A stretch of 27,824 nucleotides of DNA, counting the filler, from a bacterium (GTDB lineage: Bacteria > UBA9089 > CG2-30-40-21 > SBAY01), in NCBI GenBank assembly GCA_040757115.1. It is 2 parts of 2 records of this genome, joined end to end, with 100 filler letters (N's around TTAATTAATTAA, not from the genome) between each part and the next. Parts side by side here need not be neighbours in the genome. Positions count along the whole stretch, not along the records: positions 1 to 13,886 come from JBFLYA010000098.1; 1 more part is not named here. One strand, 5' to 3'. Below, one piece after another: positions 1-18,612 of the stretch. The notes under the pieces were generated by a model. The model worked only from the letters and a program-made list of their open reading frames with translations. It had not been told where the DNA came from and ran no database searches. The position numbers and the translations under genes were made by a program. Numbering within the stretch: position 1 is the first letter of the stretch; each line of letters starts with the position of its first letter.

Positions 1-78
1 AAGCAGTCCTGGTCCAAGTTCCTTATGCACCGCAACCGCAACATCAACTATGATTTTCCCGATTTCATTTTCATTCAT
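1..78 (-). CDS. GxxExxY family protein, 5' end only (runs off window); cassette gene
   Basis: Manual translation from ATG at 78: MNENEIGKIIVDVAVAVHKELGPGLL, the typical N-terminus leading into the GPGLLExxY motif; preceded by CACAGAGAC/CGCAAAGGA/CACAAAG nonamer-like repeats. Confidence 0.85.
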   Translation of the reverse strand, partial: MNENEIGKIIVDVAVAVHKELGPGLL

Positions 79-117
79 CTTTGTGTCCTTTGCGTCTCTG
101 TGTGAGTATTTTTATTA

Positions 118-256
118 TTCTAACGATAGAGCTCACCTGCCCAGCCCTTTTAGCAGATTTACTACCTAACAACGATTTAACGACTCGTAGACATATAATC
201 TTTCTGCTTTAATGACTCAGCAAAAGGGCTGGGTCAGGTGCAGCGATTTGTTAGCA
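118..256 (-). repeat. attC site (139 bp variant)
   Basis: Plus strand TTCTAAC-GATAGAGCTCACCTGCCCAGCCCTTTTAGC...GCAAAAGGGCTGGGTCAGGTGCAGCGATTT-GTTAGCA; immediately follows the stop of ORF 260-553. Confidence 0.88.
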
Positions 257-259
257 CAA

Positions 260-553
260 CTAATCGTGCTTTTGTTTCATGCGGTCGATCAGCTTCCCGT
301 TCTTCTGTTCGATCAGAAGAAGAGGGAACAGAATCTCCCGCCAGTCCTCAATGGTTCCATTGACACCAGCGACTTCCAATCCATCATCGGCGTACCATAT
401 CTCAAATTTCTGCTCACAGCATCCACACTTGAGCAGATACCGGGGAGTCTTCTTTCCTGTACCCTTCTTGTGGTACACCCGGATTTGCGGCTGGCTGAAT
501 CGGGATGTGTCGTAGAACCGATTGGTTCGTTTTGGGATTTGCTGCTTCATCAT
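260..553 (-). CDS. hypothetical cassette protein with CGCC motif
   Basis: 97-aa ORF exactly filling the space between two attC sites; AAGGT upstream. Confidence 0.75.
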   Translation of the reverse strand: MMKQQIPKRTNRFYDTSRFSQPQIRVYHKKGTGKKTPRYLLKCGCCEQKFEIWYADDGLEVAGVNGTIEDWREILFPLLLIEQKNGKLIDRMKQKHD

Positions 554-569
554 TTCATTATTACCTTCG

Positions 570-701
570 GGCTAACGATAAAGTTCAGGTGCGGCGGGGA
601 GAATTACCACAAAAGTTTGATAGCAAGATAAAACTTTGAGAGACCACAAAACTCTGACCACGGCACAGTCCCCCGCCGTCAACTGCAACGCAGGGTTAGA
701 C
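570..701 (-). repeat. attC site (132 bp family), followed on + by conserved ~90-bp tail 702-790
   Basis: GGCTAAC...GTTAGAC with GCGGCGGGGA/TCCCCCGCCG arms; near-identical to 7 other copies. Confidence 0.92.
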
Positions 702-812
702 AAAAGCTTTGATTCGCTGTCTTTTCCTTTTCCTCTGCCTCACCGAATTATTGTGCATTCCACATTCAGGTCTGACCCCCAAAAATTTCTACTACGATAA
801 CAACATATTTCT

Positions 813-1061
813 TTAGTTCAACCCAAGATGTTGTCTGACTTGAGCAAGTGTAGAGGTCATCATTTCTTGGGAGCGTTTATCTAAAAATGCCATTAACTCT
901 GCATTCTCCCTGATAAGTTGTATCTCTCGATCCATGTCATCCACTTCGGCTATTAAAAATTCTCGCCCCTCTGATGTTCGGACAATAAGGTTTTCATGAC
1001 TGGCAATGGTGAGAACATCAGGAAAACTTAATTTCTCTCTTGATAATTCAATGGTTTTCAT
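813..1061 (-). CDS. putative antitoxin (Phd/YefM-like), partner of RelE toxin
   Basis: 82 aa, 4-bp overlap with toxin stop, acidic C-terminus ending TLAQVRQHLGL. Confidence 0.7.
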   Translation of the reverse strand: MKTIELSREKLSFPDVLTIASHENLIVRTSEGREFLIAEVDDMDREIQLIRENAELMAFLDKRSQEMMTSTLAQVRQHLGLN

Positions 1062-1351
1062 AAATGAAACTCCTTTCCTCGAAAGAATAGTTGATTATGA
1101 ACTTTATAACCAACCGCTTTAATCTTCACAGTGAACGTATCTTCATCAACATCATAGAAAACTCGATATTCCCCAATCCGAAGTTCCCATCGTGAAAGAT
1201 CATTGGGAACTAAGGCCTTGCGATTTTTGGTTTCTGTCGTTGGTTCCCATATTAACTGGTTTTCAATCGTATCAAGAATAGTCTTTTGCTCATGTTTTCT
1301 AAAATACCGCAAATCTTCTTCTGCTCTTACAGTAATTTTGATCTCAAACAT
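1058..1351 (-). CDS. type II toxin, RelE/ParE family
   Basis: 97 aa with WELRIGEYRVFYDVDE...VKIKAVGYK RelE signature. Confidence 0.9.
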   Translation of the reverse strand: MFEIKITVRAEEDLRYFRKHEQKTILDTIENQLIWEPTTETKNRKALVPNDLSRWELRIGEYRVFYDVDEDTFTVKIKAVGYKVHNQLFFRGKEFHL

Positions 1352-1470
1352 TTGTCAATCCTGTATGCTATGGTTAATTTTTTCGTAGATTACCAAGAGG
1401 TTCTCATATTGTATTCTCAATTTTATCCAAGAAGATAAACATGTTTATGCTTCTGTGGATACGGTCACAC

Positions 1471-1602
1471 ACCTAACGATAAAGTTCAGGTGCGGCGGGG
1501 AGGATTGCCACAAAAGTTTGATAACAAGACAAAACTTTGATAAACCACAAAACTCTGACCACGGCACAGTCCCCCGCCGTCAACTGCAACGCAGGGTTAG
1601 AC
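1471..1602 (-). repeat. attC site (132 bp family) with tail 1603-1692
   Basis: ACCTAAC...GTTAGAC, family copy. Confidence 0.92.
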
Positions 1603-1703
1603 AAAAGCTTTGATTCGCTGTCTTTTCCTTTTTCTCTGCCTCACCGAATTATTGTGCATTCCACATTCACGGTTTGACCCTAAAATATCTCCTTTTTATT
1701 TTC

Positions 1704-1777
1704 TCACACAAAGCCACAAAGAACACAAAGGTTTATTGTTTTATTCAATTCCTTTGTGACTTTGTGTCTCTGTGTGA
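1704..1777. repeat. inverted nonamer-array hairpin (empty GxxExxY-type element) in an ORF-less cassette
   Basis: TCACACAAAGCCACAAAGAACACAAAGG...CCTTTGTGACTTTGTGTCTCTGTGTGA; second copy at 13790-13863; right arm matches 79-106 upstream of the GxxExxY gene. Confidence 0.8.
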
Positions 1778-1789
1778 TTATTTTTATTA

Positions 1790-1808
1790 GTCTAACCTTA
1801 GATTATAC
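1790..1808 (-). other. attI-like simple recombination site
   Basis: Minus strand GTATAAT-CTAAG-GTTAGAC (degenerate inverted L box, 5-bp spacer, GTTRRRY R box), located where the attC of the creD-like gene should be. Confidence 0.5.
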
Positions 1809-1817
1809 TGCCCATTA

Positions 1818-3047
1818 TTATTTGTTACTGATAAGTTGTTTTTCCCAGTCAATTCGACCAGTAAATTGCATTACTACAAACAATGTTAAGATACAACAGA
1901 TAGTTATTGCTAATCCTGTAAATCCTTCAAGAAAGAAAGCATACGAAAAAAGCACCAAATATACGAATTGTGAAAGACCTGTCTCTAAAAGAGCAAAGCG
2001 CACTCCTACTACAAGCCGCATGTAGGAGATTACCAAGAATATTGAAACTGCTGAGCAAATTACAAAAGCCAAGTGAATATCAATGTGATCTACTAAATAT
2101 GCCAAAAGCAGGTGGAAACTAAAAAATGCCGCTGAAATGAAGAAATAATTCATTGGATGGATATTGATTTTCTTCACTACTGTAATTATGAAGATCAAAA
2201 ATAAGAAGAGGAAAAGAGAAACTGGTGCAAAGAAACTGACTCTACTGACAAAGGGACCCGGATTCAACCTCTGGGGCATATCCATACCGATTTGAATACC
2301 CGAGATTAAATTAGAATATCGCCAGGTAAGTTCCCAACCTTTGTCTTTTCTCTCCTTTTTTGTTGGAGAAATGCTATTCTCTGGAAAATCAATCTTATCA
2401 AAGTTTGTTATCATTGTCAGCTTGAAATTTTGAATCTGGGAAACATCAGCTCCAAAAAGATACCACCACTCATCCATTCCCTGCGATTCATAAGTAATTT
2501 CGATCTTTTTTGCTTCGCCTGAACCAAAGTTTAATTTCTTCAATATTTTTCCTGAAGTTGGTTGAAGCTCTTTAATCTTTTTTCCATCAACAATAAAGCA
2601 AAAATTGTCATAGATACCTTCTTTAGTAGGAAAGGTATAGTCAAAGAAAATATCACGATTCTCTTTAGCAGTATTTATAATCTGATACTTCCCAGAGTAT
2701 CCAATTTGATATGTCGAATACCAAAGCAATCCCTTTCTTCGGTGATCGAGTTTAAAATTTACTGTAATATCGCTACTCTCAAGGGTAATGGGATGATCTG
2801 TTGTTTCTACCTTTGTCTCTATAATTGTTTCAGTTCCCCGAGTCGTTTTAACCTTCTTCTCACTTCTTGTTTGGTAGTATACATAGGGTGCCTGCTGCGT
2901 TTGAATAGTTCCCCATAATTGTCCAACTGCTCCTTTTAGCTTTACATCCTGTCTGTGAGTCCGCAAGTTGGTAACATTACCTAAAATAATCCAGGCTATG
3001 CTTGTGCAGATAAAGATAAAGATAATCGCTTTAATATGTTTCCACAT
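1818..3047 (-). CDS. creD: inner membrane CreD-family protein
   Basis: 409 aa; N-terminal TM, WG..Q motif, periplasmic domain, then about 6 TMs with IHPMNY...FHLLLAYL...LSQFVYLVLF pattern typical of CreD; RBS AAGGAGG. Confidence 0.75.
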   Translation of the reverse strand: MWKHIKAIIFIFICTSIAWIILGNVTNLRTHRQDVKLKGAVGQLWGTIQTQQAPYVYYQTRSEKKVKTTRGTETIIETKVETTDHPITLESSDITVNFKLDHRRKGLLWYSTYQIGYSGKYQIINTAKENRDIFFDYTFPTKEGIYDNFCFIVDGKKIKELQPTSGKILKKLNFGSGEAKKIEITYESQGMDEWWYLFGADVSQIQNFKLTMITNFDKIDFPENSISPTKKERKDKGWELTWRYSNLISGIQIGMDMPQRLNPGPFVSRVSFFAPVSLFLFLFLIFIITVVKKINIHPMNYFFISAAFFSFHLLLAYLVDHIDIHLAFVICSAVSIFLVISYMRLVVGVRFALLETGLSQFVYLVLFSYAFFLEGFTGLAITICCILTLFVVMQFTGRIDWEKQLISNK

Positions 3048-3096
3048 CTTGTATCCCTCCTTATATTCTCCGATTATTCAGATACTTTCTTTAGTA

Positions 3097-3228
3097 GCCT
3101 AACGATAAAGTTCAGGTGCGGCGGGAAGAATTACCACAAAAGTTTGATAGCAAGATAAAACTTTGAGAGACCACAAAACTCTGACCACGGCACAGTCCCC
3201 CGCCGTCAACTGCAACGCAGGGTTAGAC
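3097..3228 (-). repeat. attC site (132 bp family) with tail 3229-3317
   Basis: GCCTAAC...GTTAGAC, family copy. Confidence 0.92.
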
Positions 3229-3368
3229 AAAAACTCTGATTCGCTGTCTTTTCCTTTTCCTCTGCCTCACCGAATTATTGTGCATTCCACATTCACGGTT
3301 TGACCCTAATATCTCCCTATCTTTATTTATCCAAGAGGCTTCTTCATATCGCTACGTTTCTATGTGTC

Positions 3369-3388
3369 GTCTAACATATAGATTATAC
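3369..3388 (-). other. second attI-like simple site
   Basis: Minus strand GTATAAT-CTATAT-GTTAGAC, same boxes as 1790-1808 with a 6-bp spacer. Confidence 0.5.
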
Positions 3389-3435
3389 AGTTTTTCTCTA
3401 CTTTATCTCATCTGAATCAAAAAGTCAAGTAAATG

Positions 3436-3464
3436 TTGACAAAAAATAATAAATTTTGTATAAT
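3436..3464 (+). promoter_or_regulatory. sigma70 consensus promoter facing against the array
   Basis: TTGACA-17 bp-TATAAT, perfect consensus; a weaker divergent TTGACT-17-TAAAGT lies on the minus strand at 3428-3400. Confidence 0.75.
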
Positions 3465-3612
3465 TCTAACTGGCTAATCATACTTTTAGGATATTATCCA
3501 GAAAAGAGGATAACTCTGCATATTTAATATCATAAGGGATGTATTGTCCCAATATAGTTTAATCCCTCTTACCCTGATTCTACTTTCCTATCAGGTTAGG
3601 CTTTATCTATGT

Positions 3613-3849
3613 CTATAGTTTATCATATTCTTCTGGTTCAATGTTTGGGATGTGTGATAATGCTTCTTTAAACTTTTTCTTATTCGCCCTCCCTGCGCGT
3701 TCTTCCAGATAGTTTTGAGTAGCAAATGCAGATATTTTTTCTGCTGTTGCACTTGAGATAAACTGGTCTATTGAAATTCCTTCTTTTCTAACTATTTCCT
3801 CCACTTGCTGATACAATGAATCAGGCAGTCTTACACTAACCGCACTCAT
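3613..3849 (-). CDS. RHH/CopG-type antitoxin
   Basis: 78 aa, MSAVSVRLPDSLYQQV...EGISIDQFI RHH pattern; coupled to PIN gene. Confidence 0.85.
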   Translation of the reverse strand: MSAVSVRLPDSLYQQVEEIVRKEGISIDQFISSATAEKISAFATQNYLEERAGRANKKKFKEALSHIPNIEPEEYDKL

Positions 3850-4274
3850 TATTCTAACCCTCCTATCTTCTCTAAAAACTCTTTTGGTGTTAATACTTGA
3901 ATACCAAATTTTCCAATACCCTTAAAGTCTTTTTTATTATATGTGATAATGTATTCGCTTTGAGATTCAATGGCTAATTCTAATACCATATCATCTTTTA
4001 TATCTTTTAAGTAAGGTCTCCACAAGAAGAATATTTTACACTTGTTGGAGATATTACAAATCATATCTATAATTGCATCAATTTGCTCATTAGTTAATTT
4101 AGTTTCCCTTTTTGCTACACTTTCATATTCAAAAATCAAGGGAGTAGAGATATTTTGTTCAAACTTATCTCTGCTGATTTCAAAAAGTAGCTTATACGAC
4201 GCTCCTCGTTTGGAAAGTAAAGCCGCTACAAATACATTTGTATCTATGACTACTTTGTGCTTGTAATGTTTCAT
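3849..4274 (-). CDS. PIN-domain toxin (putative TA toxin, PIN family)
   Basis: VVIDTNVFVAAL, EYE, DxKDDMVLELA, IITYNKKDF PIN motifs. Confidence 0.92.
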   Translation of the reverse strand: MKHYKHKVVIDTNVFVAALLSKRGASYKLLFEISRDKFEQNISTPLIFEYESVAKRETKLTNEQIDAIIDMICNISNKCKIFFLWRPYLKDIKDDMVLELAIESQSEYIITYNKKDFKGIGKFGIQVLTPKEFLEKIGGLE

Positions 4275-4280
4275 AATGAT

Positions 4281-4309
4281 ATTATAAATGATATTATTCC
4301 ACTTGTTAA
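4281..4309 (-). promoter_or_regulatory. cassette-internal promoter for PIN TA (probably leaderless mRNA)
   Basis: TTAACA-17-TATAAT, with the -10 ending 6 nt before ATG 4274 and no SD. Confidence 0.55.
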
Positions 4310-4344
4310 TCTACTTATCTGAGTTTATAAAGTTTTATTTTAGC

Positions 4345-4476
4345 CCCTAACGATAGAGCTCACCTGCTGCGGGGCGGATTACCACCAAACTTTGTAAACA
4401 AGATAAAAGCTTGAGATACCACAAAACTCTAATTACGGCACAGCCCCCCGCAGTCAGGTGCAGTGAATGGTTAGGT
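4345..4476 (-). repeat. attC site (132 bp, no tail)
   Basis: CCCTAAC...CACCTGCTGCGGGG...CCCCGCAGTCAGGTG...GTTAGGT; R'' overlaps the TAA of ORF 4471-4716. Confidence 0.92.
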
Positions 4477-4716
4477 TTTCTTACTTTCTAAGTATAAAGT
4501 ATCAGGACATAAATCTTGCCCATTCTTCCATTGAATACTGCCCAAAAATGGTTTAACAGAGTTAAATAAGTTAGCATTCGTTAATTCTTTAAATATCCCT
4601 TTGTCTAAATATGGCTTCACATCAAATACCTTAACTTCATCATTGGTAAAAGTTAAGGTTAATGTATAGTTAGAATTCGGTTTAACATCTTTAATTCTTG
4701 GATTCATGCTAATCAC
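4471..4716 (-). CDS. DUF2442 domain protein (putative antitoxin)
   Basis: VKP..NYTLTLTFTN...FDVKPYL...GSIQWKNGQDLCPDTLY. Confidence 0.85.
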   Translation of the reverse strand: MISMNPRIKDVKPNSNYTLTLTFTNDEVKVFDVKPYLDKGIFKELTNANLFNSVKPFLGSIQWKNGQDLCPDTLYLESKKT

Positions 4717-4718
4717 CC

Positions 4719-4988
4719 CTATTTTAGTGGATCTATCTTGAAGACATTCTCGCCACTACTGGCAAGTTCCCAATCAGCCATCAATTCTTCTTTATGTATT
4801 TCAAGCCATGCCTGAACCAGTTTCATCTTGCTTGATTTAATCTTGCCTTCTAACACTTTACCATCTGGAATTGAAAGAATAGTTTCTTGAGCCTGATACT
4901 TGACATGAACATGAGGCATCTGATGTTTTCTTTTGTCGAAATAATACATCGAGATAATGATACCATAAAACATTGCAATTACTGCCAT
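4719..4988 (-). CDS. DUF4160 domain protein (putative toxin)
   Basis: IAMFYGIIISMY...PHVHVKY...LVQAWLEIHKEELMADW...FKIDPLK; RBS AGGAGG. Confidence 0.88.
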   Translation of the reverse strand: MAVIAMFYGIIISMYYFDKRKHQMPHVHVKYQAQETILSIPDGKVLEGKIKSSKMKLVQAWLEIHKEELMADWELASSGENVFKIDPLK

Positions 4989-5020
4989 CTTTTACCTCCT
5001 TTTGCTTAATTTCTCTCTGA

Positions 5021-5152
5021 ACCTAACGATAAAGTTCAGCGGCGGCGGGGAGGATTGCCACAAAAGTTTGATAGCAAGATAAAACCTTGAGAGACCACAA
5101 AACTTTGACCACGGCACAGCCCCCCGCCGTCAACTGCAACGCAGGGTTAGAC
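5021..5152 (-). repeat. attC site (132 bp family) with tail 5153-5243
   Basis: ACCTAAC...GTTAGAC, family copy. Confidence 0.92.
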
Positions 5153-5302
5153 AAAAGCTTTGATTCGCTGCCTTTTCCTTTTCCTCTGCCTCACCGAATT
5201 ATTGTGCATTCCACATTCACGGTTTGACCGTAATATCTCCCCCAATTCAAGATGCGACCCTCTATTGCCCTCCTACTCTATTGCCCTATTGCCCCGACCT
5301 TA

Positions 5303-6182
5303 CTATTGCCCCCTTGAAGTCAGTTGTTGCAACACTGAAAATGCTCGTTGTGCATCATTGTCATTTGGGTTTTTCTCAAGAATATCTTTTGCGAGAAGCA
5401 ACCCATCTTCAATTTTCCCTTGACCTGCGAGTGCCAATGCAAGGAACAATGATACATTTTTGTCATTTCCATATTTAGATAAATACTCTTGACACAGAGA
5501 TTCGCATTTTGAATACTTCTTTTTGTTAATACTTTCTGCGATTAGAGAGGGTATGACTTTTTTCGCATATTCTGTCTCTTTTGCCTCTAGCTCTTCCAGA
5601 TCCGCATCGGTTATTCCAAATGGTGCGAGCTTTTCCTCATCCAGATTCTCGCGAGCTATCATTGCGCCAAGTGTAAATAGATTGACATATTTGAGAAAAT
5701 TGCCCAAGCTGTCCGGCTGTATGACGCCTATAATTGTCAAGGAAGAGCTCAATAGAAAAACTAAAACCACCAAACAGGGGTATTCCTTCAATAACTGCTA
5801 AACAGAGCAATTTAAAGCAGCAGTCGGGGAGCCTTCTCTTGTTAACAAAATCCCAAATTATGGGGAGAAAAATCCATATTAGAAAATAAGGTGTTACCGA
5901 GAAAAAGAGCTTGCCTGCTGTTGCCCAAGAACTTAACAATCCAATTCCATCTTCTAAAGGCAAGAACGGAACTAACCTCGCAGTATGAAAAGAAAGGAAT
6001 GAGTCAGCTCTTTTGAAAAACTGCCAGCCGAAAAACCCGAAAATTTGAACCAAAGTGGTTAACCCCAATGCAAACACAAAAAGTTTTGCAACTATTCCCA
6101 CAGTAAGTAAGATCGGCTCAAAAAATTTCCACCTACTAAATGCAGACATGAAAAGGAAGATCGGTCGAAAAAATTTCTTCAT
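5303..6182 (-). pseudogene. probable single frameshifted gene: membrane protein with C-terminal TPR-like repeat (ORFs 5637-6182 and 5303-5791)
   Basis: Two ORFs overlap by 155 bp inside one cassette; removing one T from the T run near 5756-5760 fuses them into ...IPLFGGFSF-LLSSSLTIIG...; C-terminus LALALAGQGKIEDG..AKDILEKNPNDNDA is TPR-like. Confidence 0.55.
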
Positions 6183-6205
6183 AATCTTCTCCTATTTGCC
6201 TTGGC

Positions 6206-6337
6206 GCCTAACGATAAAGTTCAGGTGCAGCGGGGAGAATTACCACAAAAGTTTGATAGCAAGATAAAACTTTGACAGGCCACAAAACTCTGACCACGGC
6301 ACAGTCCCCCGGCGTCAACTGCAACGCAAGGTTAGAC
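6206..6337 (-). repeat. attC site (132 bp family) with tail 6338-6427
   Basis: GCCTAAC...GTTAGAC, family copy. Confidence 0.92.
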
Positions 6338-6415
6338 AAAAGCTCTGATTCGCTGTCTTTTCCTTTTCCTCTGCCTCACCGAATTATTGTGCATTCCACA
6401 TTCACGGTTTGCCCC

Positions 6416-6808
6416 TCATATCTCCCCTCTTTTGTTATTATTTAGCTGGAGTTCTAAGTTCAAATTCCCCTCCAAATCCAGAAGCATCTTTTCAAATACT
6501 GGTCTAATTGGTGGCAACTCCTCTTTGACTGCTCTCCAAACTAAATCTGTTTTAACCCCAAAATATTCATGGATGAGTTTATCTCTCATACCTGCGATAT
6601 CCCGCCAGGGAATCTCTGGATATTTCTTTTTTGTTTCATTCGGTATGTTTTTGACTGCTTCGCCAATAATTTCTAAAGCCCTTATAACAGCAAAATTTGT
6701 TTTATCATCGCATAGGAATTCCTCATAAGGCATATTCCAGGTGAAACTTTCTGCTTTATTTATTGCTTCAATTATATCTTGAATATAATCACCAATTTCC
6801 CTTTTCAT
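6416..6808 (-). CDS. HepT-like HEPN ribonuclease toxin (DUF86)
   Basis: AVIRALEIIGEA...IPWRDIAGMRDKLIHEYFGV (Rx4H motif); stop codon lies inside the conserved attC tail. Confidence 0.92.
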   Translation of the reverse strand: MKREIGDYIQDIIEAINKAESFTWNMPYEEFLCDDKTNFAVIRALEIIGEAVKNIPNETKKKYPEIPWRDIAGMRDKLIHEYFGVKTDLVWRAVKEELPPIRPVFEKMLLDLEGNLNLELQLNNNKRGEI

Positions 6809-7104
6809 AGATACACTACTTCCTCTAATATATGCTTTCCTATCTTTGGCTTAAGGGAAGACCTCATTACTAAATCAACCTTTATTCTTAAAAGGTCACT
6901 TAAATAGTTTTCTAAATTTATAAATCTTAAAAGTCCAATCTTTGCATCATCATCAAAATCAACAAGAATATCCAAATCGCTTTTTTTTTGGTTTTCCCCT
7001 CTAACATAAGAGCCAAACATTCCTATTTGATTAACATTGTATCTTTTTTTTAATTCCCATTTATTATCTCTTAATATCTGCTCAATCTCTTCTATTTTTT
7101 TCAT
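6805..7104 (-). CDS. MntA-like minimal nucleotidyltransferase antitoxin
   Basis: FGSYVRGE..KSDLDILVDF...KVDLV; start moved from 7194 to ATG 7104, which has SD GAGGAGG. Confidence 0.92.
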   Translation of the reverse strand: MKKIEEIEQILRDNKWELKKRYNVNQIGMFGSYVRGENQKKSDLDILVDFDDDAKIGLLRFINLENYLSDLLRIKVDLVMRSSLKPKIGKHILEEVVYL

Positions 7105-7222
7105 CTGCTCCCTCCTCAAATTTTCGACGGTATTGTCAAAAGTTTCGGGTTGACTTTTCCTAAAAGATATGAGGGCATATCTTTTCATAAACATCTTTAT
7201 GCTTCTGTAGATGCGGTTACAC

Positions 7223-7414
7223 GCCTAACGATTGAGCTCACCTGCTGCGGGGAGGACTACCACTAACCTTTGTAAACAAGATAAAAGCTTGAGATACCAC
7301 AAAACTCTAATTCCGGCACAGCCCCCCGCAGTCCACTTCCGGGTAGAATCAGCGGTTACCCAACCAATCCCAGAGCTTCGGATTTAACTTGACACGAGCA
7401 ACGATTGGTTAGGA
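7223..7414 (-). repeat. attC site interrupted by a 60-bp insertion (7338-7397)
   Basis: 192 bp = 132-bp family length + 60; removing 7338-7397 restores GTCCACTGCAACG, matching GTCAACTGCAACG/GTCCGCTGCAACG of sister sites. Confidence 0.88.
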
Positions 7415-7699
7415 TTAATATACTTCATCGTGTGTTCCAATCTCAAGCAAAAGAATATCGTCTTCATCTTGCTCTTTACTCTTTACAAAATCAAATACTA
7501 TTCGCAGGTCGTATCCAACGCTACATGCCCAGGAGCCCAATAGTTTACCTTTAAGTTTATGAGTCTCCAATTGCGGAGTAAAAGGATCTTTGGTCAAAAG
7601 TTCCACGGCTTCTTTAATATCTTGCTTAAGAATTGGATGCTTTTTGATAGTTCGTTTGAATGCCCTTATAAAGGTTTTGCCCCAAATGAGTGTTCTCAT
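7415..7699 (-). CDS. type II toxin, RelE/StbE-YafQ-like mRNA interferase
   Basis: THKLKGKL.GSWACSVGYDLRIVF...LLEIGTHDEVY. Confidence 0.92.
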   Translation of the reverse strand: MRTLIWGKTFIRAFKRTIKKHPILKQDIKEAVELLTKDPFTPQLETHKLKGKLLGSWACSVGYDLRIVFDFVKSKEQDEDDILLLEIGTHDEVY

Positions 7700-7917
7700 T
7701 CGAAAAGCTCCTTCATCAGGTCATCTACACTACCACTTTTTACTTCTCCTCTAGCATATTCTTCTCTTGCTTCCCTGATGTTCTTTGCAAGTAACTCTCG
7801 TCTCTGGTCTATTAACCTATGCCGAATAATATCAATGAGGTTTTCCTGCTGATATTCAGGTAACGATTCTACAACATCTAAAGCCTCTTGTAAAATTGTA
7901 GCACTTTGACTGGACAT
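7696..7917 (-). CDS. antitoxin partner of YafQ-like toxin
   Basis: 73 aa, EAREEYARGEVKSGSVDDLMKEL, 4-bp overlap with toxin; RBS AGGGGG. Confidence 0.8.
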   Translation of the reverse strand: MSSQSATILQEALDVVESLPEYQQENLIDIIRHRLIDQRRELLAKNIREAREEYARGEVKSGSVDDLMKELFE

Positions 7918-7944
7918 TTAAAATACCCCCTTTCTTCTTGAAAA

Positions 7945-8065
7945 GCCTAACAATAAATAGGGGAAATGTCCCCCTATTTCCGTAAGCATGATTACCCATT
8001 GAGATACTGCAAAACTTTCAATCACGGCACAGTCCCCCGCCGTCCGCTGCAACGATTTGTTAGCT
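7945..8065 (-). repeat. chimeric/degenerate attC
   Basis: Normal R''/L'' arm (CACGGCACAGTCCCCCGCCGTCCGCTGCAACGATTTGTTAGC), but the other arm is replaced by GCCTAAC followed by the hairpin AAATAGGGG-AAATGTC-CCCCTATTT. Confidence 0.7.
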
Positions 8066-8079
8066 TTTATGCAACTATT

Positions 8080-8712
8080 TCATGGACAGAGTTCTATTGT
8101 GGATTTTGCATTTATAAGAACCATATCTCCTTTTCCTTTCAAGACACCATTTTCATTAATATATTCAACTTTTCCGACAAAAGCTTTGGTTGGATATAAC
8201 TTAGCTTTAAGGGTCTCCTTTGAAGTTGAAATTATTCTATACTGGGCTTCTGGATCAAAGGTATTCTTTCTTACAGGTAGAATTAACTTAATCCCTCCAT
8301 CTTTAAGTTCTAACACATCGCCATCTAAAGTACTCCGCAAAACTTCAATGGGAGGTTCAAGGGTTACTCTTCCCTCTTGATCTATTATATTTCTTATCTT
8401 GTTAACATAAATTTGAGCATTTAGGCTGTCTTTTTCCTTTTTAAAAAAAGCAACCTCGCCTATCCAATTTTCCCCTGCCCATTGCCATTCGTATCTCTCT
8501 CCAACTTTAGGCACGGGTAAATAGGAAAAGTATTTGGAGGAAAAGATTGACAAGACAATGATTGAGGCTACTAATAACAAAAAGAAAATAGAAGCATATG
8601 CAATCTTTGTCCACTTTCCTTGCTTTATGTTTCCTATTATTTGCCATAACAAACTCCCCATTGCTGGAAAAACACCAATTATGGCGGCAATGATTATTGG
8701 GTCCATTTTCAT
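8080..8712 (-). CDS. hypothetical protein, two N-terminal TM helices plus soluble domain
   Basis: 210-aa ORF, RBS AGGGGG, ends 14 bp before the attC. Confidence 0.75.
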   Translation of the reverse strand: MKMDPIIIAAIIGVFPAMGSLLWQIIGNIKQGKWTKIAYASIFFLLLVASIIVLSIFSSKYFSYLPVPKVGERYEWQWAGENWIGEVAFFKKEKDSLNAQIYVNKIRNIIDQEGRVTLEPPIEVLRSTLDGDVLELKDGGIKLILPVRKNTFDPEAQYRIISTSKETLKAKLYPTKAFVGKVEYINENGVLKGKGDMVLINAKSTIELCP

Positions 8713-8728
8713 TTCTACCCCCTTTAAT

Positions 8729-9640
8729 TTATTTAAAGTAATAAGTAAAATTTAGAATTGCTTCAGAGCTTTCAGCAGTATTTTTTCCATAAAAAGTATA
8801 ACCATATCCTAATTCGAAAGAGAATCCCTGATTTGCTCTGGTTGCTCCAAATGAACCTATATTAATAAGGAAAATCTATTTAGAATATTCTTCGTATTTC
8901 TTTTTAATAACTTCTTTTTCGGTAGGGTCTTTTGTTGAACTTGAAGTAACTTTGACCCCATCTAATATAGCTCTTAAAAAAACTTTGTTTGGTACTTTTA
9001 ACGGTAATTCTAAATTCATCTCAGCAAAATAAGGTATTTTATCTACAAATTCCCTCGCTCTTATTCTGTAGCCAATTTCTGCACCAATACTATGGAGCAA
9101 TTTATCAGTATTATCGGGACTATCGGGTGATTTGTTAAATTTTTTCCCTATTAACAAACGAGTTTCAGTTTCTCTTTCTCCATCACCAAGAGATGGTGAC
9201 TTGTTCTCATCGTAACCACTTGGAAATTTTTCTCTAAGTAATATACTTATTGTAGGATAGTATTTATCTTGATAATCATCTTCATTTAAAACTCTATATT
9301 TCAATCCTACAAAAATATCCTCAATATGTTTATTTTTAAAGGTATCAAACTCATTTTCAAATTTTGCCCATTTGTAGGGAATAGAAAATGATAAATTTAT
9401 ATTATCTAATACCCCATATTCCATTTTAAATTCTGTTCTCTGTTCATCGTACTTACCACCAAAAGGAATTTCTTCTTTCTTGCCGTTATTATCAAAGTTT
9501 TTATCTGACCAATAATATTTATAATACATTTCAGTGAAAATATCACTTTTTCCGATAGTCCACGCACCAGCGAATATATTCTTTGGTAAATATATAATTG
9601 AAAATAGAATTAATAGCTGAGTAATTGTCTTTATATGCAT
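8729..9640 (-). pseudogene. exported outer-membrane beta-barrel-like protein with one in-frame TAG (8876-8878)
   Basis: Signal peptide (..IFA-GAWT); beyond the TAG the same frame continues IFLINIGSFGATRANQGFSFELGYGYTFYGKNTAESSEAILNFTYYFK to TAA 8729, ending in a barrel-type aromatic C-terminus. Confidence 0.7.
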
Positions 9641-9667
9641 AGCTCTATCCCCACCAATATTTATTAA

Positions 9668-9799
9668 AGCTAACGACAAAGTTCAGGTGCGGCGGGAAGA
9701 ATTACCACAAAAGTTTGATAGCAAGATAAAACTTTGAGAGACCACAAAACTCTGACCACGGCACAGTCCCCCGCCGTCAACTGCAACGCAGGGTTAGAC
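9668..9799 (-). repeat. attC site (132 bp family) with tail 9800-9890
   Basis: AGCTAAC...GTTAGAC, family copy. Confidence 0.92.
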
Positions 9800-9915
9800 A
9801 AAAGCTCTGATTCGCTGTCTTTTCCTTTTCCTCTGCCTCACCAAATTATTGTGCATTCCACATTCACGGTTTGACCCTACTATCTCCCCCTAACCTATCT
9901 TATTTCCATAAATTC

Positions 9916-10239
9916 TTACGGTCTAACTCTAACTCTTTCCTCACTCCTTCTCTGAATTAAGTCATGTTCCAGCATCCTGGTAGCGTTGCGTATCTTTTCT
10001 CTCAACCAGGTATTGATTAACGACTCAGATGAAACTTTCTTTATTTTTGCTATTTCAGTAAGATTAGCCACAATATCTTCTTCAAGAGCAACCAAATACT
10101 TTCTCCTTTTGATATTTACATCAAAATGGGCTTCTGGCATTTGTTCCCAATAATTCCCCATGTCATGAATATCAAAGAAGTCAATAAGTTCATCTATAGA
10201 TCTTGAAGGTGGTAGAGTTTTTAATTTATTTTTTACCAT
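9916..10239 (-). CDS. CopG-family antitoxin (BrnT partner)
   Basis: SIDELIDFFDIHDMGNYW...LTEIAKIKKVSSESLINTWLREKI. Confidence 0.85.
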   Translation of the reverse strand: MVKNKLKTLPPSRSIDELIDFFDIHDMGNYWEQMPEAHFDVNIKRRKYLVALEEDIVANLTEIAKIKKVSSESLINTWLREKIRNATRMLEHDLIQRRSEERVRVRP

Positions 10240-10510
10240 ATTGTTTCCTCTCTTTCTTTTTCATATTTCTGGCACTCAAGATGAGTGTTTCTCTCGTCTT
10301 TTTGTAGATAAAGAGTACGGATAGGTATCTTCCACTATTAGTTTGTCCCAAAGCCAGATAAACATCTTCGCCTTTTCGCTCACCTTTTTCAACAAAACGG
10401 AATTTTGGTTTATTATTTAACACCTCTTCAACTTCATTGGGAGTAACATTGGGTTTAACTGCCAGTTTATCAACAATGTTTCTGAGCCAAATAATATCTT
10501 CTATCTTCAT
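10226..10510 (-). CDS. BrnT-family toxin
   Basis: VTPNEVEEV...YLALGQTNSGRYLSVLF...ILSARNM...ERKQY; likely start MKIEDIIW at 10510 (the ORF track starts at 10534). Confidence 0.88.
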   Translation of the reverse strand: MKIEDIIWLRNIVDKLAVKPNVTPNEVEEVLNNKPKFRFVEKGERKGEDVYLALGQTNSGRYLSVLFIYKKTRETLILSARNMKKKERKQYGKK

Positions 10511-10564
10511 CCGTTTTTTATATCCTCTTTTCATTCAGCATGTTATATCTATTATTCACAGGTA

Positions 10565-10696
10565 GGCTAACGATAAAGTTCAGGTGCGGTGGGGAGAATT
10601 ACCACAAAAGTTTGATAGCAAGATAAAACTTTGAGAGACCACAAAACTCTGACCACGGCACAGTCCCCCGCCGTCAACTGCAACGCAGGGTTAGAC
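10565..10696 (-). repeat. attC site (132 bp family) with tail 10697-10785
   Basis: GGCTAAC...GTTAGAC, family copy. Confidence 0.92.
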
Positions 10697-10785
10697 AAAA
10701 GCTCTGATTCGCTGTCTTTTCCTTTTCCTCTGCCTCACCGAATTATTGTGCATTCCACATTCACAGTTGCTCCTAATATCTCCCC

Positions 10786-10907
10786 TGAGTTCATCGGCGG
10801 CGGGGAGAATTACCACCAAACTTTGTAAGCGAGACAAAACTTTAATAAAACACAAACATTTAAAAAGCAGTTAACCCCCCGCCGTCCGCTGCAACGATTA
10901 GTTAGGA
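10786..10907 (-). repeat. truncated attC lacking its R' (GTT) box
   Basis: TGAGTTCATCGGCGGCGGGGAG...CCCCGCCGTCCGCTGCAACGATTAGTTAGGA; the initial CTAACGA of the family is replaced by the tail of the neighbouring attC. Confidence 0.8.
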
Positions 10908-10958
10908 AAAAATTCACACATACTTAATTCTGCTTTCGAGGTCTGAACCAGATATTGG

Positions 10959-11017
10959 TCCCAACGCCAAAACTCAGCGGTGGGCTACTACCCGTCCGCT
11001 GGAATGTTTTGTTAGAA
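10959..11017 (-). repeat. short attC (59 bp)
   Basis: TCCCAAC-GCCAAAACTCAGCGG-TGGG-CTACTA-CCCG-TCCGCTGGAATGTTTT-GTTAGAA. Confidence 0.8.
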
Positions 11018-11231
11018 GCTGTGTCGCTTTCGTTAAATCAAGTAAAGACCTCAATGCCTTATTTACGGCATCTGAATCTGCAAATGATTTAGCAATATCC
11101 GGCTCAAGCATTACGATATTAGCTCCTTCTGATAGAAGACGTTTGTAATACTTGCCACGAATAGCTTTTGAATAATCAAAATCATATTCGGGGCGTAACT
11201 CATCACTACTTTTTTTTTCTTTAATTTTCAT
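10974..11231 (-). CDS. BrnA-like antitoxin
   Basis: DELRPEYDFDYSKAIRGKYY...LEPDIAKSF.DSDAVNKALRSL; likely start 11231; reads into the attC. Confidence 0.8.
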   Translation of the reverse strand: MKIKEKKSSDELRPEYDFDYSKAIRGKYYKRLLSEGANIVMLEPDIAKSFADSDAVNKALRSLLDLTKATQLLTKHSSGRVVAHR

Positions 11232-11490
11232 GTCTTTTCCTTTCATGTGCGGTTGCAGTCCGCGCATTTATTATCCATATTATTTTTCCCCTCTCGGTAT
11301 GTGATACTACAAGTAGACGACTACCAGAAGAGTAACCAACAGTTATTAATCTTTCCTCGTCATTCGAATGATCTGGATCATCAAAAGTTGCTGATAAAGG
11401 ATTATAAAATACCGTCATAGCTTCTTCAAATGGCACCTTGTGTTTTTTGATGTTCTTTTTTGCTTTTTCCTTGTCCCATTCAAATTGCAT
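11221..11490 (-). CDS. BrnT-family toxin
   Basis: MQFEWDKEKAKKNIKKHKVPFEEA...DPDHS.DEER...LLVVSHTER...INAR.AT..ER. Confidence 0.93.
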   Translation of the reverse strand: MQFEWDKEKAKKNIKKHKVPFEEAMTVFYNPLSATFDDPDHSNDEERLITVGYSSGSRLLVVSHTERGKIIWIINARTATAHERKRHEN

Positions 11491-11572
11491 GTAATTAATT
11501 TATCCTATTTTTTACGCCATTTTTCCAAAACTCTTTTTTCGTATAAAACATTCCCTACTTATATCACTTTAT

Positions 11573-11601
11573 ATTATACAGCATAAAAATTTATATGTCA
11601 A
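11573..11601 (-). promoter_or_regulatory. cassette-internal sigma70 promoter of BrnTA pair
   Basis: TTGACA-17-TATAAT perfect consensus on the minus strand. Confidence 0.75.
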
Positions 11602-11628
11602 TCAAAAAATCCTCTGCACTATTCATAC

Positions 11629-11691
11629 CACTAACGGCAAAACTTACCGGCATGCGGTGTTTTGTGCGTCCAGTGGAACGCAGTGTTAGGG
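11629..11691 (-). repeat. short attC (63 bp)
   Basis: Minus strand CCCTAAC-ACTGCG-TTCCACTGGAC...CCGGTAAG-TTTTGCC-GTTAGTG. Confidence 0.75.
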
Positions 11692-11719
11692 CATATTACA
11701 GTCAGTAAACCCCTTGGAA

Positions 11720-13516
11720 TCATAGCAATTCAAACCATGTTTTGATTTTCTGTGCCATTAACTTACGTCGCTCTTCAAGGAAATCATCGTAGGGTGGAAT
11801 TGTGCCGTCCAATAAAGACTCAGGTAGGCAGCTTGCCTTCAGGTTGGCCTTCATCTCTTCAAAGTTAGTGATACCGCCATATTTTTTCTTTCCACCGCGA
11901 CACTGTTCAGCCAGTTCCTCAAAGTATGTTTCCGGTGGGTTATCGCCGATGGCGATATTGATTTCACTCTGCGCAAGTACAAAGTTAGCGATTTGATTAT
12001 AACGTCCTCGCGAAAGTCCCTGCTTTTTTAAATAGTTCCTGGGATAGATGTGGTGTACGTCGCTACGGTTGAGCAGCAGGTCGAGCACAGTAATATCACG
12101 AGACAAAAAACCTTTATCGCCGAGTTTTACCTGCGCTGCTTGAAAACATAGGAAGTAAGGACTGTTTGATGAGGATGTGTCCATAATTTGAGGAAGCATT
12201 CCTGTCCAGAAGCTGTCTGGGAGCTCATTCTCAACGACAGAAGCAGCATAAGTCGTCAGCCCGCGATTTTCAATTTGGCGTATATCAAAATCAAAGGCTG
12301 TCTCAGGACTAGCGGCATAACGTCCGCGTAGTAGTGACATGGCATACCATCGCCGCACCAAACGTTCAAGATCAGCTGCAGGGATGCCTTCCGTCCGACC
12401 ACGCAGGTAAAGTATATACGCAAAGTTGACGGCATTACGTCCTCCAATCAAATCACTGGTCACGAATCCCGCTGAACGCAAGATCATCGTGATACGATCG
12501 AAGTGGGTTTTGTTGACAAACGAGAGAATACCCTTTTTTAGTTTTCCGAATGACGCCTCAACAATTGACTCTTCAAATTGTTTAGTCTCGAAGTTACGGC
12601 CTGATAGTAGCGCTACCAAATCCTGGAGCTTTCCTCTGCCAAATTCAGACGTAAAAGCCACACGCAACATATCGGTGTAAGTTGGATCGTATATGTCGTC
12701 GTTGACATCTTTGAGCCAGCGCATTTGTGGCAGGAATTCAGAATCCGCAAACGCTTTATCGTTCTTTTCAATGTTTGACAAGAATTCTGGTGCGACAGCC
12801 AAATGGCAGAAATAGTCGATTGCCTTGCGCAAAAGGTTTCCGCCGTAAATCTCGTTGACGGCAATTTTTGACATAGCAAAGTCGGCTTGCGAAAGCTCTG
12901 CACCTGCTGAGGTTACGCGGATAAATATTTCTGTGACGGTTTCAATATCAAGATCTTCGGCAAGATCGATTACGCCGACGTGGTTGTTGATGATCTTGCG
13001 AAGCTTCTCGATGCTGGCAAAAATAGCATCCTGTGATACGCCAGGATTGGCAGCGCAGTAATTACCAACAAGTTGGAACAGGCTGGTAGAGGGTGCAAAT
13101 ACATCCGCCACATCGTGAATCCACGATGCGTCTTTGCGTATAGCCGGATTTGCGACTTCAAACCGTTCTTCTTGCGGATGAAAAGCAATACGGATTTGGA
13201 CGGTTTCGTAATCTTTAGTTAGAACATCGCGGCCTAACAATGCCGCCATGAGTGCCGTTACTCGTTGTTGACCATCAATAAGGATGCGCTTCCCAATGGA
13301 TGATGTGCCATCCTTAAGTTTTACAGTCGGATTTCGCCAGGCTATCAAATACCCAACAGGGTATCCTTGATAAAGTGAATCGAGGAGGTTGCGAACTTTT
13401 GTTGCCTCCCACACAAATGGCCGCTGGATCTCTGGGATCGCGATTTCCCCAGACTTGACCCATGTAAGCAGAGTTTCGATTGGATGGGGAGTTACCGAAT
13501 AGCGTTGTGTACTCAA
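11720..13516 (-). CDS. GmrSD-like type IV restriction endonuclease (DUF262 + DUF1524/HNH)
   Basis: [17 protein letters not shown] and EIFIRV DUF262 motifs; C-terminal DVHHIYP...NQIANF...N HNH-like motif; TTG start with AGGAGG. Confidence 0.88.
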
Positions 13517-13557
13517 TTCAATAATCCTCCTTTTTGTGGTAAGTAGATGGTTGAAGC

Positions 13558-13689
13558 CCCTAACGATAAAGTTCAGGTGCGGCGGGGAGGATTACCACAA
13601 AAGTTTGATAGCAAGATAAAACTTTGAGAGACCACAAAACTCTGACCACGGCACAGTCCCCCGCCGTCAACTGCAACGCAGGGTTAGAC
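13558..13689 (-). repeat. attC site (132 bp family) with tail 13690-13778 and hairpin 13790-13863
   Basis: CCCTAAC...GTTAGAC; 13558-13868 nearly duplicates 1471-1782. Confidence 0.92.
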
Positions 13690-13886
13690 AAAAGCTTTGA
13701 TTCGCTGTCTTTTCCTTTTCCTCTGCCTCACCGAATTATTGTGCATTCCACATTCACGGTTGACCCTAAAATATCTCCTTTTTATTTTCTCACACAAAGC
13801 CACAAAGAACACAAAGGTTTATTGTTTTATTCAATTCCTTTGTGACTTTGTGTCTCTGTGTGATTATTTATTTCTCCATTGACTAT

Positions 13887-13986
13887 NNNNNNNNNNNNNN
13901 NNNNNNNNNNNNNNNNNNNNNNNNNNNNNNTTAATTAATTAANNNNNNNNNNNNNNNNNNNNNNNNNNNNNNNNNNNNNNNNNNNN
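13887..13986. other. artificial contig linker
   Basis: 44 N + TTAATTAATTAA (stops in all six frames) + 44 N = 100 bp. Confidence 0.97.
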
Positions 13987-16757: not shown

Positions 16758-16786
16758 TTGACTTTTTTCCTGATTTTTGTTATCAT
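16758..16786 (+). promoter_or_regulatory. sigma70 promoter of MFS gene
   Basis: TTGACT-17-TATCAT, 10 nt before ATG 16797. Confidence 0.6.
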
Positions 16787-16796
16787 TCGAGTTGTT

Positions 16797-17945: not shown

Positions 17946-18059
17946 CCTTACGGTTCGCAAAGGACAAAGTATCGTAACTGTTCACCGCAGAGACACAGAG
18001 ACGCAGAGAAAAAATTAAAATTTATTGGTAATTATTCAGCCACAGATGGACACGGATGA

Positions 18060-18366: not shown

Positions 18367-18612
18367 ACGGATAAAACACTGAAAATTCATAATCTGTGTC
18401 CGTTTTCCGTGTCCGTAATCAGGCTGAAGGTTTTTCCTCCTGTTGTCCTCTGTCCTCTGTCCTCTGCCCTCTGCCTTCTGCCCTCTGCCCTCTGCCCTCT
18501 GCCTTCTGCCCTCTGTACTTATCCGTGCTAATCCGTGTTAATCAGTGGCTGAATAGATACTATTCCAGAGGTTCATGAATTTTCCGAATGCCTCCAAACG
18601 AATTTAATTCAC

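Follow-up and report, generated by a model that had tools for sequence, protein, structure and literature searches.

An attC-tail composite repeat with a REPIN-like outer arm in integron cassette arrays of Candidatus Desantisbacteria

In the stretch of bacterial DNA analysed here (the window; 27,824 nucleotides, assembly GCA_040757115.1), eight near-identical integron attC sites carry the same ~90-nt sequence, the tail, on the side that faces the cassette content, and beyond the tail the DNA differs from site to site. The locus raises the question of whether a unit of tail and attC is repeatedly joined to new DNA, turning it into a mobilisable cassette, as had been proposed from the DNA alone (the sequence-only reading), or whether it spreads among cassettes that already exist. 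We favour the second answer, at a rough probability of 0.55: the unit, of subfamily A, probably spreads in arrays by overwriting the 3′ ends of existing cassettes. At the same level of confidence, the eight copies in the window are members of the youngest subfamily within a composite repeat found across the phylum, and their near-identity reflects a young subfamily sweeping arrays and is not proof that new cassettes are being built. This reading starts from features observed directly, which are the composite anatomy of the unit, the age and spread of the tail, the joint divergence of tail and attC, the identity of a repeat arm at the outer end, and relics of tails and attC sites. Genomes, contigs and loci used for comparison are cited by G, C and L numbers.

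Tail and attC as one repeated unit

A repeat search of the window recovered eight copies of a 235-nt repeat, starting at positions 556, 1457, 3083, 5007, 6192, 9654, 10551 and 13544, with 89-93% identity to the reference copy c3097. Each unit is made up of an attC of ~130 nt and a tail of ~90 nt (Table 1), at the places given by the sequence-only reading. Searching for an 80-nt tail core with up to 3 mismatches gave 4 matches compared to 0 in 100 shuffles, and the remaining four tail copies, which have indels or extra mismatches relative to this core, were recovered in a multiple alignment. Per-column identity was calculated over seven copies, with c13558 left out as the element next to it is shared with c1471. 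In both flanks of the unit, mean identity was 0.32-0.36. It rose to 0.74-0.81 over the outermost 20 nt of the tail and to 0.86-1.0 across the remaining tail and attC, dropping to 0.34 past R′; conservation of the tail thus equals that of the recombination site.

Positions 1-13886, the first contig, form an integron cassette array whose genes are all on the - strand, and the folded + strand of the unit has three single-base bulges on the 3′ arm and one on the 5′ arm, indicating that the + strand is the attC bottom strand and that the tail is located between the cassette content and R″. In cassette orientation the attC of each unit runs from GTCTAAC to GTTAG(G/C), in agreement with the R″ and R′ consensus (RYYYAAC and GTTRRRY), and R″ pairs with R′ in the predicted fold. 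The extra-helical bases and the upstream genes in the same orientation are those of attC sites in clusters of attC sites lacking integron integrases (CALIN), and no integron integrase was found in the window. A tail profile matched these eight places only. The attC sites at 4346-4474, ~7950-8063 and 10787-10905 were assigned to tail class 'none' with the profile, and those at ~117-250, 7223-7352 and 11632-11700 were judged tail-less by eye, consistent with the earlier claim that the other attC sites of the window lack the tail.

The contig comes from a metagenome-assembled genome, is rich in 235-nt repeats and ends in a repeat (position 13886 falls inside a repeated palindromic element), all of which speaks for a repeat-induced assembly artefact. 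Contigs from Logan, a separate assembler, were used to examine the junctions. In run X1, contigs cross the junction of tail and unique DNA with at least 31 nt on each side at c570 (739-1498), c5021 (5204-6237) and c6206 (6387-7100), reaching 37-52 nt of the tail from the unique DNA, and contigs at c3097 and c9668 extend merely 28 and 20 nt inside the tail. In run X2, a second sample with a strain differing by a few percent, contigs cross the junctions of c6206 (6387-7249) and c9668 (9831-10595). Only X2 is independent, because X1 is probably the source sample. With contigs reaching 37-57 nt into the tail at three X1 and two X2 junctions, and with the same units present on dozens of G001 contigs and in 16 other genomes, an assembly artefact can for practical purposes be set aside. 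The support applies to these junctions and does not extend to cassette order, which the contigs cannot check across 235-nt repeats.

Age of the tail and nature of its outer end

The nearest genome, G001, shares 38% of the 31-mers of the window and stands in for the window's own genome. BLAST found at least 40 tail matches in G001 (the best 40 of 79 candidates were scored). A census of attC sites on 39 G001 contigs and the window array located 103 attC 5′ ends, 12 of them at contig ends and 91 scorable; a full tail was present at 48, the attC-proximal half at 12, a short or disrupted piece at 6, and no tail at 25. The full tail or its attC-proximal part is therefore found on 60/91 scorable sites, a fraction biased by the choice of contigs for their matches to the window. 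The sequence-only reading had taken it as established that similarity between cassettes normally stops at the attC boundary, which is not the case in this lineage.

Other attC subfamilies each have their own tail variants. The distances between tails and between attC sites are correlated (Mantel r = 0.59 for 44 units, reached by 0/2000 permutations), although this figure is not a clean probability because the copies are related. Tails with 72-79% identity adjoin short (~60 nt) attC sites in other genera, as found by BLAST. A sequence-only model (R1) built from 30 diverse tails, with 150 candidates scored per genome of the order, matched at E <= 0.01 in 11/11 genomes of the order (at least 105 matches in G001 and 4-36 in each other genome), and at E <= 1e-4 in 17/24 genomes and 10/13 genera of the phylum (Ca. 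Desantisbacteria). The tail thus occurs far beyond the array of the window; it is old, phylum-wide, and located beside quite different attC types. A recognisable attC, judged by eye, follows ~12/16 tails in other genera and 8/11 tails on long contigs, so that the constant attachment of tail to attC that had been asked about holds for most tails, and not for a minority that lack a recognisable attC.

Several individual copies were recorded during this survey. Locus L144 (G021:C27:7714-7823), in another family, has an A-type tail and attC almost identical to those of the window, and is either a recent cassette transfer or a binning error. In other genera, a strong promoter element that is itself repeated (TTGACT, ~18 nt, TATAAT) often directly precedes the tail (L145:1460-1600 in G012:C73, L095, L084, L078 and L068), and the content of cassettes of this kind is no more than a promoter. 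At L046:10310-12100 (G001:C212) a solitary tail and attC lie on a 20-kb contig, with a ~260-bp insert with 9-bp inverted ends in the tail, and an IS110-family transposase gene starts ~130 nt past the outer end of this tail.

The outer end of the tail resembles a dispersed repeat. A palindrome on G001:C512 folds at -40.5 kcal/mol, and its arm is identical to the tail start of c1471 at 35/42 positions. The 13-nt core motif was counted 47 times in G001, 17 in G006, 11 in G010, 5 in G008 and 3 in G012, with 0-2 for the reversed-motif control across genomes (0 in G001). Approximately 26 of the 47 G001 copies are on contigs without known tails, mainly as hairpin doublets, which is the dispersed, hairpin-forming inverted doublet of repetitive extragenic palindromic (REP) sequences and of the doublets known as REPINs; the same arm forms perfect mini-palindromes in G009-G011. 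A complete doublet is absent from the tail, whose first ~40 nt match one arm with no second arm. On sequence resemblance, it is the end of a REPIN-like element that gives the tail its sharp outer boundary throughout the phylum, and the rest of the tail is distinct, with a short linker and a purine-rich segment abutting R″.

Y1 transposase genes of the HUH type, which the sequence-only reading had suggested looking for, are present, with 9, 9, 6, 5 and 1 in the five genomes searched, and some are flanked by the motif that forms the outer end of the tail. The motif is found in inverted orientation on both sides of a gene similar to REP-associated tyrosine transposases (RAYTs) at G006:C93 and G006:C253, and upstream only of a Y1 gene at G001:C335; it was present at 3 and absent at 11 of the 14 Y1 loci examined. 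The ORF at G006:C93 encodes 320 aa. For two Y1 proteins the best NCBIfam match is NF047646, 'REP-associated tyrosine transposase', with scores of 79.5 and 68.4 bits (cut-off 80), and the Y1_Tnp scores of the RAYT-like proteins are 61.7 and 53 bits.

These observations bear on the proposal that the whole tail is a miniature inverted-repeat transposable element (MITE) with a fixed insertion site next to R″, which had been named as an outcome that would overturn the sequence-only reading. The outer 40 nt are indeed the arm of a mobile repeat, and one copy (L053) is without the tail interior; however, a second arm and a target duplication are both absent, the inner segment occurs in subfamily-specific variants on every attC type and diverges with its attC, no Tn3-family transposase was found in 11 genomes, and nothing in Rfam matches at the tail. 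We consider a MITE comprising the whole tail highly improbable, and only the outer ~40 nt, as one REPIN-like arm, fit the end of a mobile element. A Tn3-type inverted repeat, which the tail resembles, was dropped as a candidate with the PF01526 transposase in 0/11 genomes of the order.

Other candidate identities of the tail were also rejected. A structured RNA was dropped: RNAalifold on the 30 diverse tails gave 0 conserved pairs, fold z-scores for the tail alone were -0.53 (+ strand) and -2.19 (- strand), not significant relative to shuffles, and the Rfam search of the window returned only weak miRNA-like matches, on the palindrome neighbouring the tail. A peptide was rejected on a 20-codon frame of the A type that is stopped in the variant L003:422, and on a purine tract that varies by 1-2 nt. 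A 9-codon mini-ORF (open reading frame) at tail positions ~21-50 (e.g. window 3267-3296), with alternating GTG/TTG starts and TGA/TAA stops, is intact in 15/30 diverse tails by eye and broken or altered in the other 15. Sigma-70-like promoters numbered 15 in 3000-6500 (10.1 +/- 3.1 expected), with none inside the three tails of that stretch. A processive antitermination site in the inner segment was dropped; with one NusG-family gene in each of 11/11 genomes, there is no specialised NusG paralogue.

Proposed replacement of cassette 3′ ends and its alternatives

Whatever DNA precedes it, the unit begins at its repeat end, and it is the preceding partner whose cut point varies arbitrarily. Within the window, a c-type tail start that is cut off after ~20 nt precedes a complete A-type tail (local alignment score of 22, compared to a mean of 8.5 and a maximum of 14 in 500 shuffles). 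At c10565, an attC of another type is fused directly to the tail with ~10 nt of its R′ missing; the orthologous place in G001 (L003) keeps R′ intact directly before the tail and is the only true tail-only cassette seen, having attC crossovers on both sides and no ORF, of which c10565 is a degraded copy. At L045, a full A tail comes directly after an inner segment with the first 10 nt of another attC; the attC that belongs to this A tail joins an A-type 5′ part to a B-type 3′ arm, so that its arms no longer match. Two tails lie in tandem at L064/L063, tandem partial tail starts occur at five loci, and a dispersed-type arm is joined to an A-type remainder in three copies (c570, L033:141 and L061), the outer arm of c570 being of the dispersed GGGGTCAGACC type instead of the A type. 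Compared as sequences, these relics point to earlier tails and attC sites having been replaced on existing cassettes.

The events would be as follows. In cassette orientation, the unit consists of a REPIN-like arm of ~40 nt, ~50 nt of unstructured purine-rich sequence and the attC hairpin, and the three parts would be inherited and homogenised together. The A unit would replace the 3′ ends of existing cassettes in a manner resembling gene conversion, anchored on one side by homology inside or beyond attC and stopping on the other side at the outer end of the repeat arm; because replacement would stop at the repeat arm, unrelated DNA would always abut the same end of the tail, and tail copies would be as alike as their attC sites. 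A RAYT-like Y1 transposase may have a role at the outer end, and our guess is that the inner purine-rich segment assists recombination as an accessory sequence acting in cis. For Vibrio, an earlier study proposed that attC sites and non-coding cassettes undergo gene conversion (Boucher 2006, PMC1382264).

Several points weigh against replacement. No replacement event was caught between strains, and the sole candidate for an orthologous cassette with and without the tail (window 4481-5108 and G001:C124) is beside an intI fragment and rearranged, giving no clean comparison. The relics can also be explained by deletions whose downstream end is preserved by selection, and the identity gradient towards the outer end (0.74-0.81) fits conversion tracts and repeat-mediated joining alike. 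The census fractions carry the bias of contigs picked by window matches, and the Mantel permutations take no account of how the copies are related. The RAYT-like scores fall slightly short of the NCBI equivalog cut-off with the motif flanking 3/14 Y1 loci, a single arm in the tail is not by itself a known RAYT hairpin substrate, the function suggested for the inner segment is a guess, and a minority of tails (~4/16 in other genera; 3/11 on long contigs) lack a recognisable attC.

The principal alternative is construction, in which a tail-attC unit with a repeat end is attached de novo to genes and gives them an attC. The join would be made by a RAYT-like HUH enzyme at the repeat end, or between the tail arm and a REPIN already present 3′ of a chromosomal gene, a step that we regard as possible but unlikely. 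In keeping with construction, the start of the unit is constant and its upstream partner varies, the outer end is a repeat arm with relatives dispersed in the chromosome, RAYT-like genes are present, and some copies join a dispersed-type arm to an A-type remainder. In L080 and L045, an attC is cut at nearly the same point after R″, and what is left of it, its first few bases, adjoins a REPIN in one case and a tail-attC unit in the other. The genesis of cassettes is described as unexplained, and thought to occur in hosts of chromosomal integrons, in passages of Loot 2017 (PMC5371416). However, no non-cassette gene was found with a homologue that differs only by the added unit, and all junctions whose history can be read are located on cassettes that already existed. 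The unit does not provide the 5′ boundary that a new cassette would also require, the tail has one arm only, and current mobility is doubtful in the nearest genome because its integrases are broken. De novo attachment is thus, in our judgement, an unlikely though tenable source of these junctions. What stands of the proposal that a ~220-bp unit is copied and joined to new DNA is that tail and attC form one unit with a constant outer end and a varying partner; the conversion of non-cassette DNA into a cassette is not seen among the historically readable junctions, all of which replace an earlier tail or attC.

A second alternative is that tail and attC are a gene-less cassette moved by the integrase IntI, and that junctions between gene and tail arose by loss of the preceding attC. 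A true tail-only cassette does exist at L003, with c10565 at the same place lacking ~10 nt of R′, precise loss of an attC between short direct repeats is apparent in G003 (L070 compared to L079), and purine-rich, R′-like bases are often found before the tail. Yet, of ~60 tails whose upstream DNA could be read, a single independent locus proved to be tail-only, most tailed cassettes are without an attC remnant between gene and tail, and conservation begins ~9 nt before any TTAG-like core, making this origin very unlikely. In the comparison of L070 and L079 (G003, G006), two ACAAGA direct repeats mark the limits of this apparent, precise loss, after which the tail adjoins the start of the next cassette.

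Replacement of cassette ends, as any other model, still needs the original joins of gene and tail, and the repeat end may offer a route to these through RAYT or REPIN homology. Taken further, the unit could be a hybrid of two systems of single-strand DNA recombination, with an outer REP/RAYT (HUH) substrate or homology patch and an inner IntI site, in which the repeat end is joined to REPINs 3′ of genes and the integrase uses the tail as an arm site; we offer this hybrid as a tentative idea that is probably not correct as a whole.

Integrases, cassette contents and related systems

The integron integrases of the lineage are 412-457 aa long. Their core scores 381-421 bits with TIGR02249 (cut-off 265) and matches VchIntIA (2a3v) at E = 2.5e-73, and by sequence qualifies as a bona fide IntI. 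On their own, the N-terminal 95 aa match Phage_int_SAM_4 (PF13495) at 31.8 and 30.3 bits (cut-off 27). In an AlphaFold2 model, residues 1-88 form four helices (predicted local distance difference test, pLDDT, 75-92) followed by a linker at 88-133 with block-mean pLDDT of 22-32. Profile and model together predict an extra N-terminal SAM-like four-helix domain on a disordered linker, as in heterobivalent recombinases. BLASTP of the extension against the core SAM domain gave no alignment; the Pfam profile does detect the extension. It is present at IntI loci of eight genomes (G001, G003, G004, G008, G010, G014, G019 and, as a fragment, G017). Examples with ~100-145 aa and a variable disordered linker are L106:1495-2868 (G003:C16, a protein of 457 aa), L099:1492-2730, L101:1495-2757 and L067:700-1200 (G001), and 12 homologues, of 298-490 aa, are in the protein collection. 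No N-terminal extension or arm binding of integron integrases is described in the open-access papers searched (supplements excluded, here and below).

TIGR02249 scored over the cut-off in 7/24 genomes of the phylum, and the matches in G001 are fragments only (215, 208 and 125 bits). One G001 intI is split by MITE-like inserts, inside which the contigs break (L067 and L066; G001:C220 and C611), and a second copy, L065 (G001:C745), is N-terminally truncated with an in-frame TGA. Broken integrases in G001 fit arrays that are now changing by recombination and decay and not by IntI. Contigs with an intact intI, and with them any adjacent array, end within a few hundred bases. Across the 24 genomes, 11 have tails and IntI, 6 have tails without IntI, 2 have IntI without tails (both pseudogenes) and 5 have neither.

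The tail, or its inner segment together with two 7-nt direct repeats in the arm, may be an arm-type site for the extended IntI, a reading that concerns function and is compatible with replacement of cassette ends. The SAM-like domain that a flexible linker ties to the N-terminal side of a bona fide IntI core, its presence at IntI loci of eight genomes, and conservation of the tail in sequence without conserved structure are as would be expected of such a site. On the other hand, the complete IntI of G012 (327 aa) lacks the extension and yet this genome has 4 tails, the IntI pseudogenes of G017 and G019 do carry it but neither genome has a tail at E <= 1e-4, and 25/91 attC sites are without any tail; co-occurrence is weak evidence as both features follow phylogeny. 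Use of the tail as an arm site is accordingly quite doubtful. To our knowledge, integron integrases do not use arm sites. Arm-type and accessory sequences belong to the sites of other tyrosine recombinases, as in the att arms of lambda and in cer and psi for XerCD. The unit resembles these in having a one-sided conserved flank next to the core site and a recombinase with an extra N-terminal domain on a flexible linker, and differs in that one genome has tails with an IntI that lacks the extension.

Genes upstream of the units were assigned with Pfam profiles (Table 1). The DNA in front of the tails is unrelated, as had been claimed: ParE/RelE, CreD-like, weak TPR, HepT/MNT and BrnT/CopG genes, a gene-less palindrome and a truncated attC. 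The tail does supply the stop codon of HepT, whose domain is complete by residue 107 of 130: the TGA at 6416-6418 corresponds to tail positions 8-10 of c6206, where other copies have TTA. The segment described as ORF-less DNA is gene-less, and is not unrelated single-copy DNA, since this palindromic element is itself repeated. It begins at a core-like site (G↓TTAGAC). Fifteen G001 copies have a tail and A-type attC, several being cut by contig ends; at 5-6 loci the element is joined straight to a B-type attC without any tail, and in the L053 copy the tail is reduced to its first and last few bases. After the CreD-like gene (window 1800-1830), the last ~24 nt before the palindromic element match the end of a promoter-bearing region that precedes the first cassettes on several G001 contigs (L021, L053, L060 and L040), and may be an attI-like junction.

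Table 1 Features of the window; c-numbers denote units, and upstream genes are Pfam assignments
Feature	Position	Strand	Remarks
Unit c570	570-790	-	attC ~572-699, tail 700-~790
ParE/RelE-type toxin	1058-1351	-	Pfam
Unit c1471	1471-1692	-	attC 1471-1600, tail 1601-1692
Palindromic gene-less element	1691-1799	-	directly upstream of tail c1471; second copy 13779-13869
CreD-like gene	1818-3047	-	Pfam
Unit c3097 (reference copy)	3097-3316	-	attC 3097-3226, tail 3227-3316
Inner reference tail	3227-3276	-	short linker and purine-rich conserved segment (M2) abutting R″
Outer ~40 nt of reference tail	3277-3316	-	matches one REPIN-like palindrome arm
Unit c5021	5021-5240	-	attC 5021-5150, tail 5151-5240
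c-type tail-start relic	5243-5266	-	cut off after ~20 nt, then complete A-type tail; local alignment
Weak TPR match	5303-5791	-	Pfam
Unit c6206	6206-6425	-	attC 6206-6335, tail 6336-6425
HepT	6416-6808	-	Pfam; with MNT 6805-7194
Unit c9668	9668-9887	-	attC 9668-9797, tail 9798-9887
CopG antitoxin	9916-10239	-	Pfam; with BrnT 10226-10534
Unit c10565	10565-10783	-	attC 10565-10694, tail 10695-10783; no gene in front
Other-type attC without R′ end	10787-10905	-	fused directly to tail c10565
Unit c13558	13558-13778	-	attC 13558-13687, tail 13688-13778
N linker between two contigs	13887-13986		
MFS transporter ORF	16758-17945		second contig

Further features of the window include a cassette with a 598-aa GmrSD-type restriction endonuclease (11720-13516, - strand), which has a short attC and no tail, and a sigma-70-like promoter with 12/12 matches (3436-3464, + strand) that points the opposite way to the cassettes and has a small hairpin after it; L066:880-960 is a similar stretch. 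On the second contig, an element of ~320 bp with terminal inverted repeats (18050-18375) contains a 62-aa ORF (18087-18275); it is also inserted inside G001 tails (L060:8936, 10952; L051), with an apparent 9-bp duplication.

Compared with the homogeneous attC sites of sedentary chromosomal integrons, such as the Vibrio cholerae repeats (VCRs), and with CALIN arrays, the array has the same folded attC with R″ and R′, a single gene orientation, many toxin-antitoxin cassettes, and attC sites that are very similar within one host. It differs in that the homogeneous unit extends ~90 nt beyond R″ into the cassette, and in that this extension is conserved across the phylum while the attC hairpin varies from ~60 to ~130 nt. 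Likeness of attC sites within a host is taken, in passages of PMC5371416 and PMC1382264, as a sign that cassettes are made or homogenised there. Paralogous non-coding cassettes of Vibrio are gene-less, highly repeated and conserved between species, with conversion or selfish spread proposed in part of PMC1382264; those are whole cassettes, whereas here a 3′ module is shared by cassettes with unrelated genes, and a tail-only cassette occurs at one locus only.

Insertion sequences of the IS1111-attC group target attC. Group IIC-attC introns are likewise mobile DNA at a fixed place and orientation in attC, according to part of PMC3001079. Unlike these elements, the tail has no transposase, intron RNA or reverse transcriptase of its own, lies outside the hairpin and diverges with attC, and an IS110-family gene is beside one solitary unit only. 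The dispersed palindromic doublet and the tandem partial copies are shared with REP/REPIN-RAYT systems, to which the RAYT-like genes flanked by the inverted motif at G006:C93 and G006:C253 may also be likened (background in parts of PMC3116915 and PMC3337134). In contrast to these systems, the tail holds one arm only, this arm is permanently fused to a non-REP segment and attC, and there are several RAYT-like genes per genome compared to the single copy described for RAYTs. In the open-access papers searched, nothing beyond an analogy links attC with REP, REPIN or RAYT, and none concerns integrons in Desantisbacteria.

De novo formation of cassettes is described as largely unknown in passages of PMC5371416 and PMC8352920, where likeness among attC sites is read as cassettes forming in hosts of chromosomal integrons; the origin of attC and its likeness within a host are open questions in the same sources. 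In this lineage the repeated unit exceeds the recombination hairpin and ends in what appears to be a piece of another mobile system, so that models of cassette birth or of attC homogenisation gain a fixed, sequence-defined joint to explain, and two candidate proteins can be named, the RAYT-like HUH enzyme and the integrase with its extra domain. If joining at the repeat end does occur, it would hand ordinary genes a ready-made attC and would be a concrete route for cassette birth. If the unit only overwrites cassette ends, it would still illustrate plainly how attC sites evolve in concert, the relics showing where the tracts lie.

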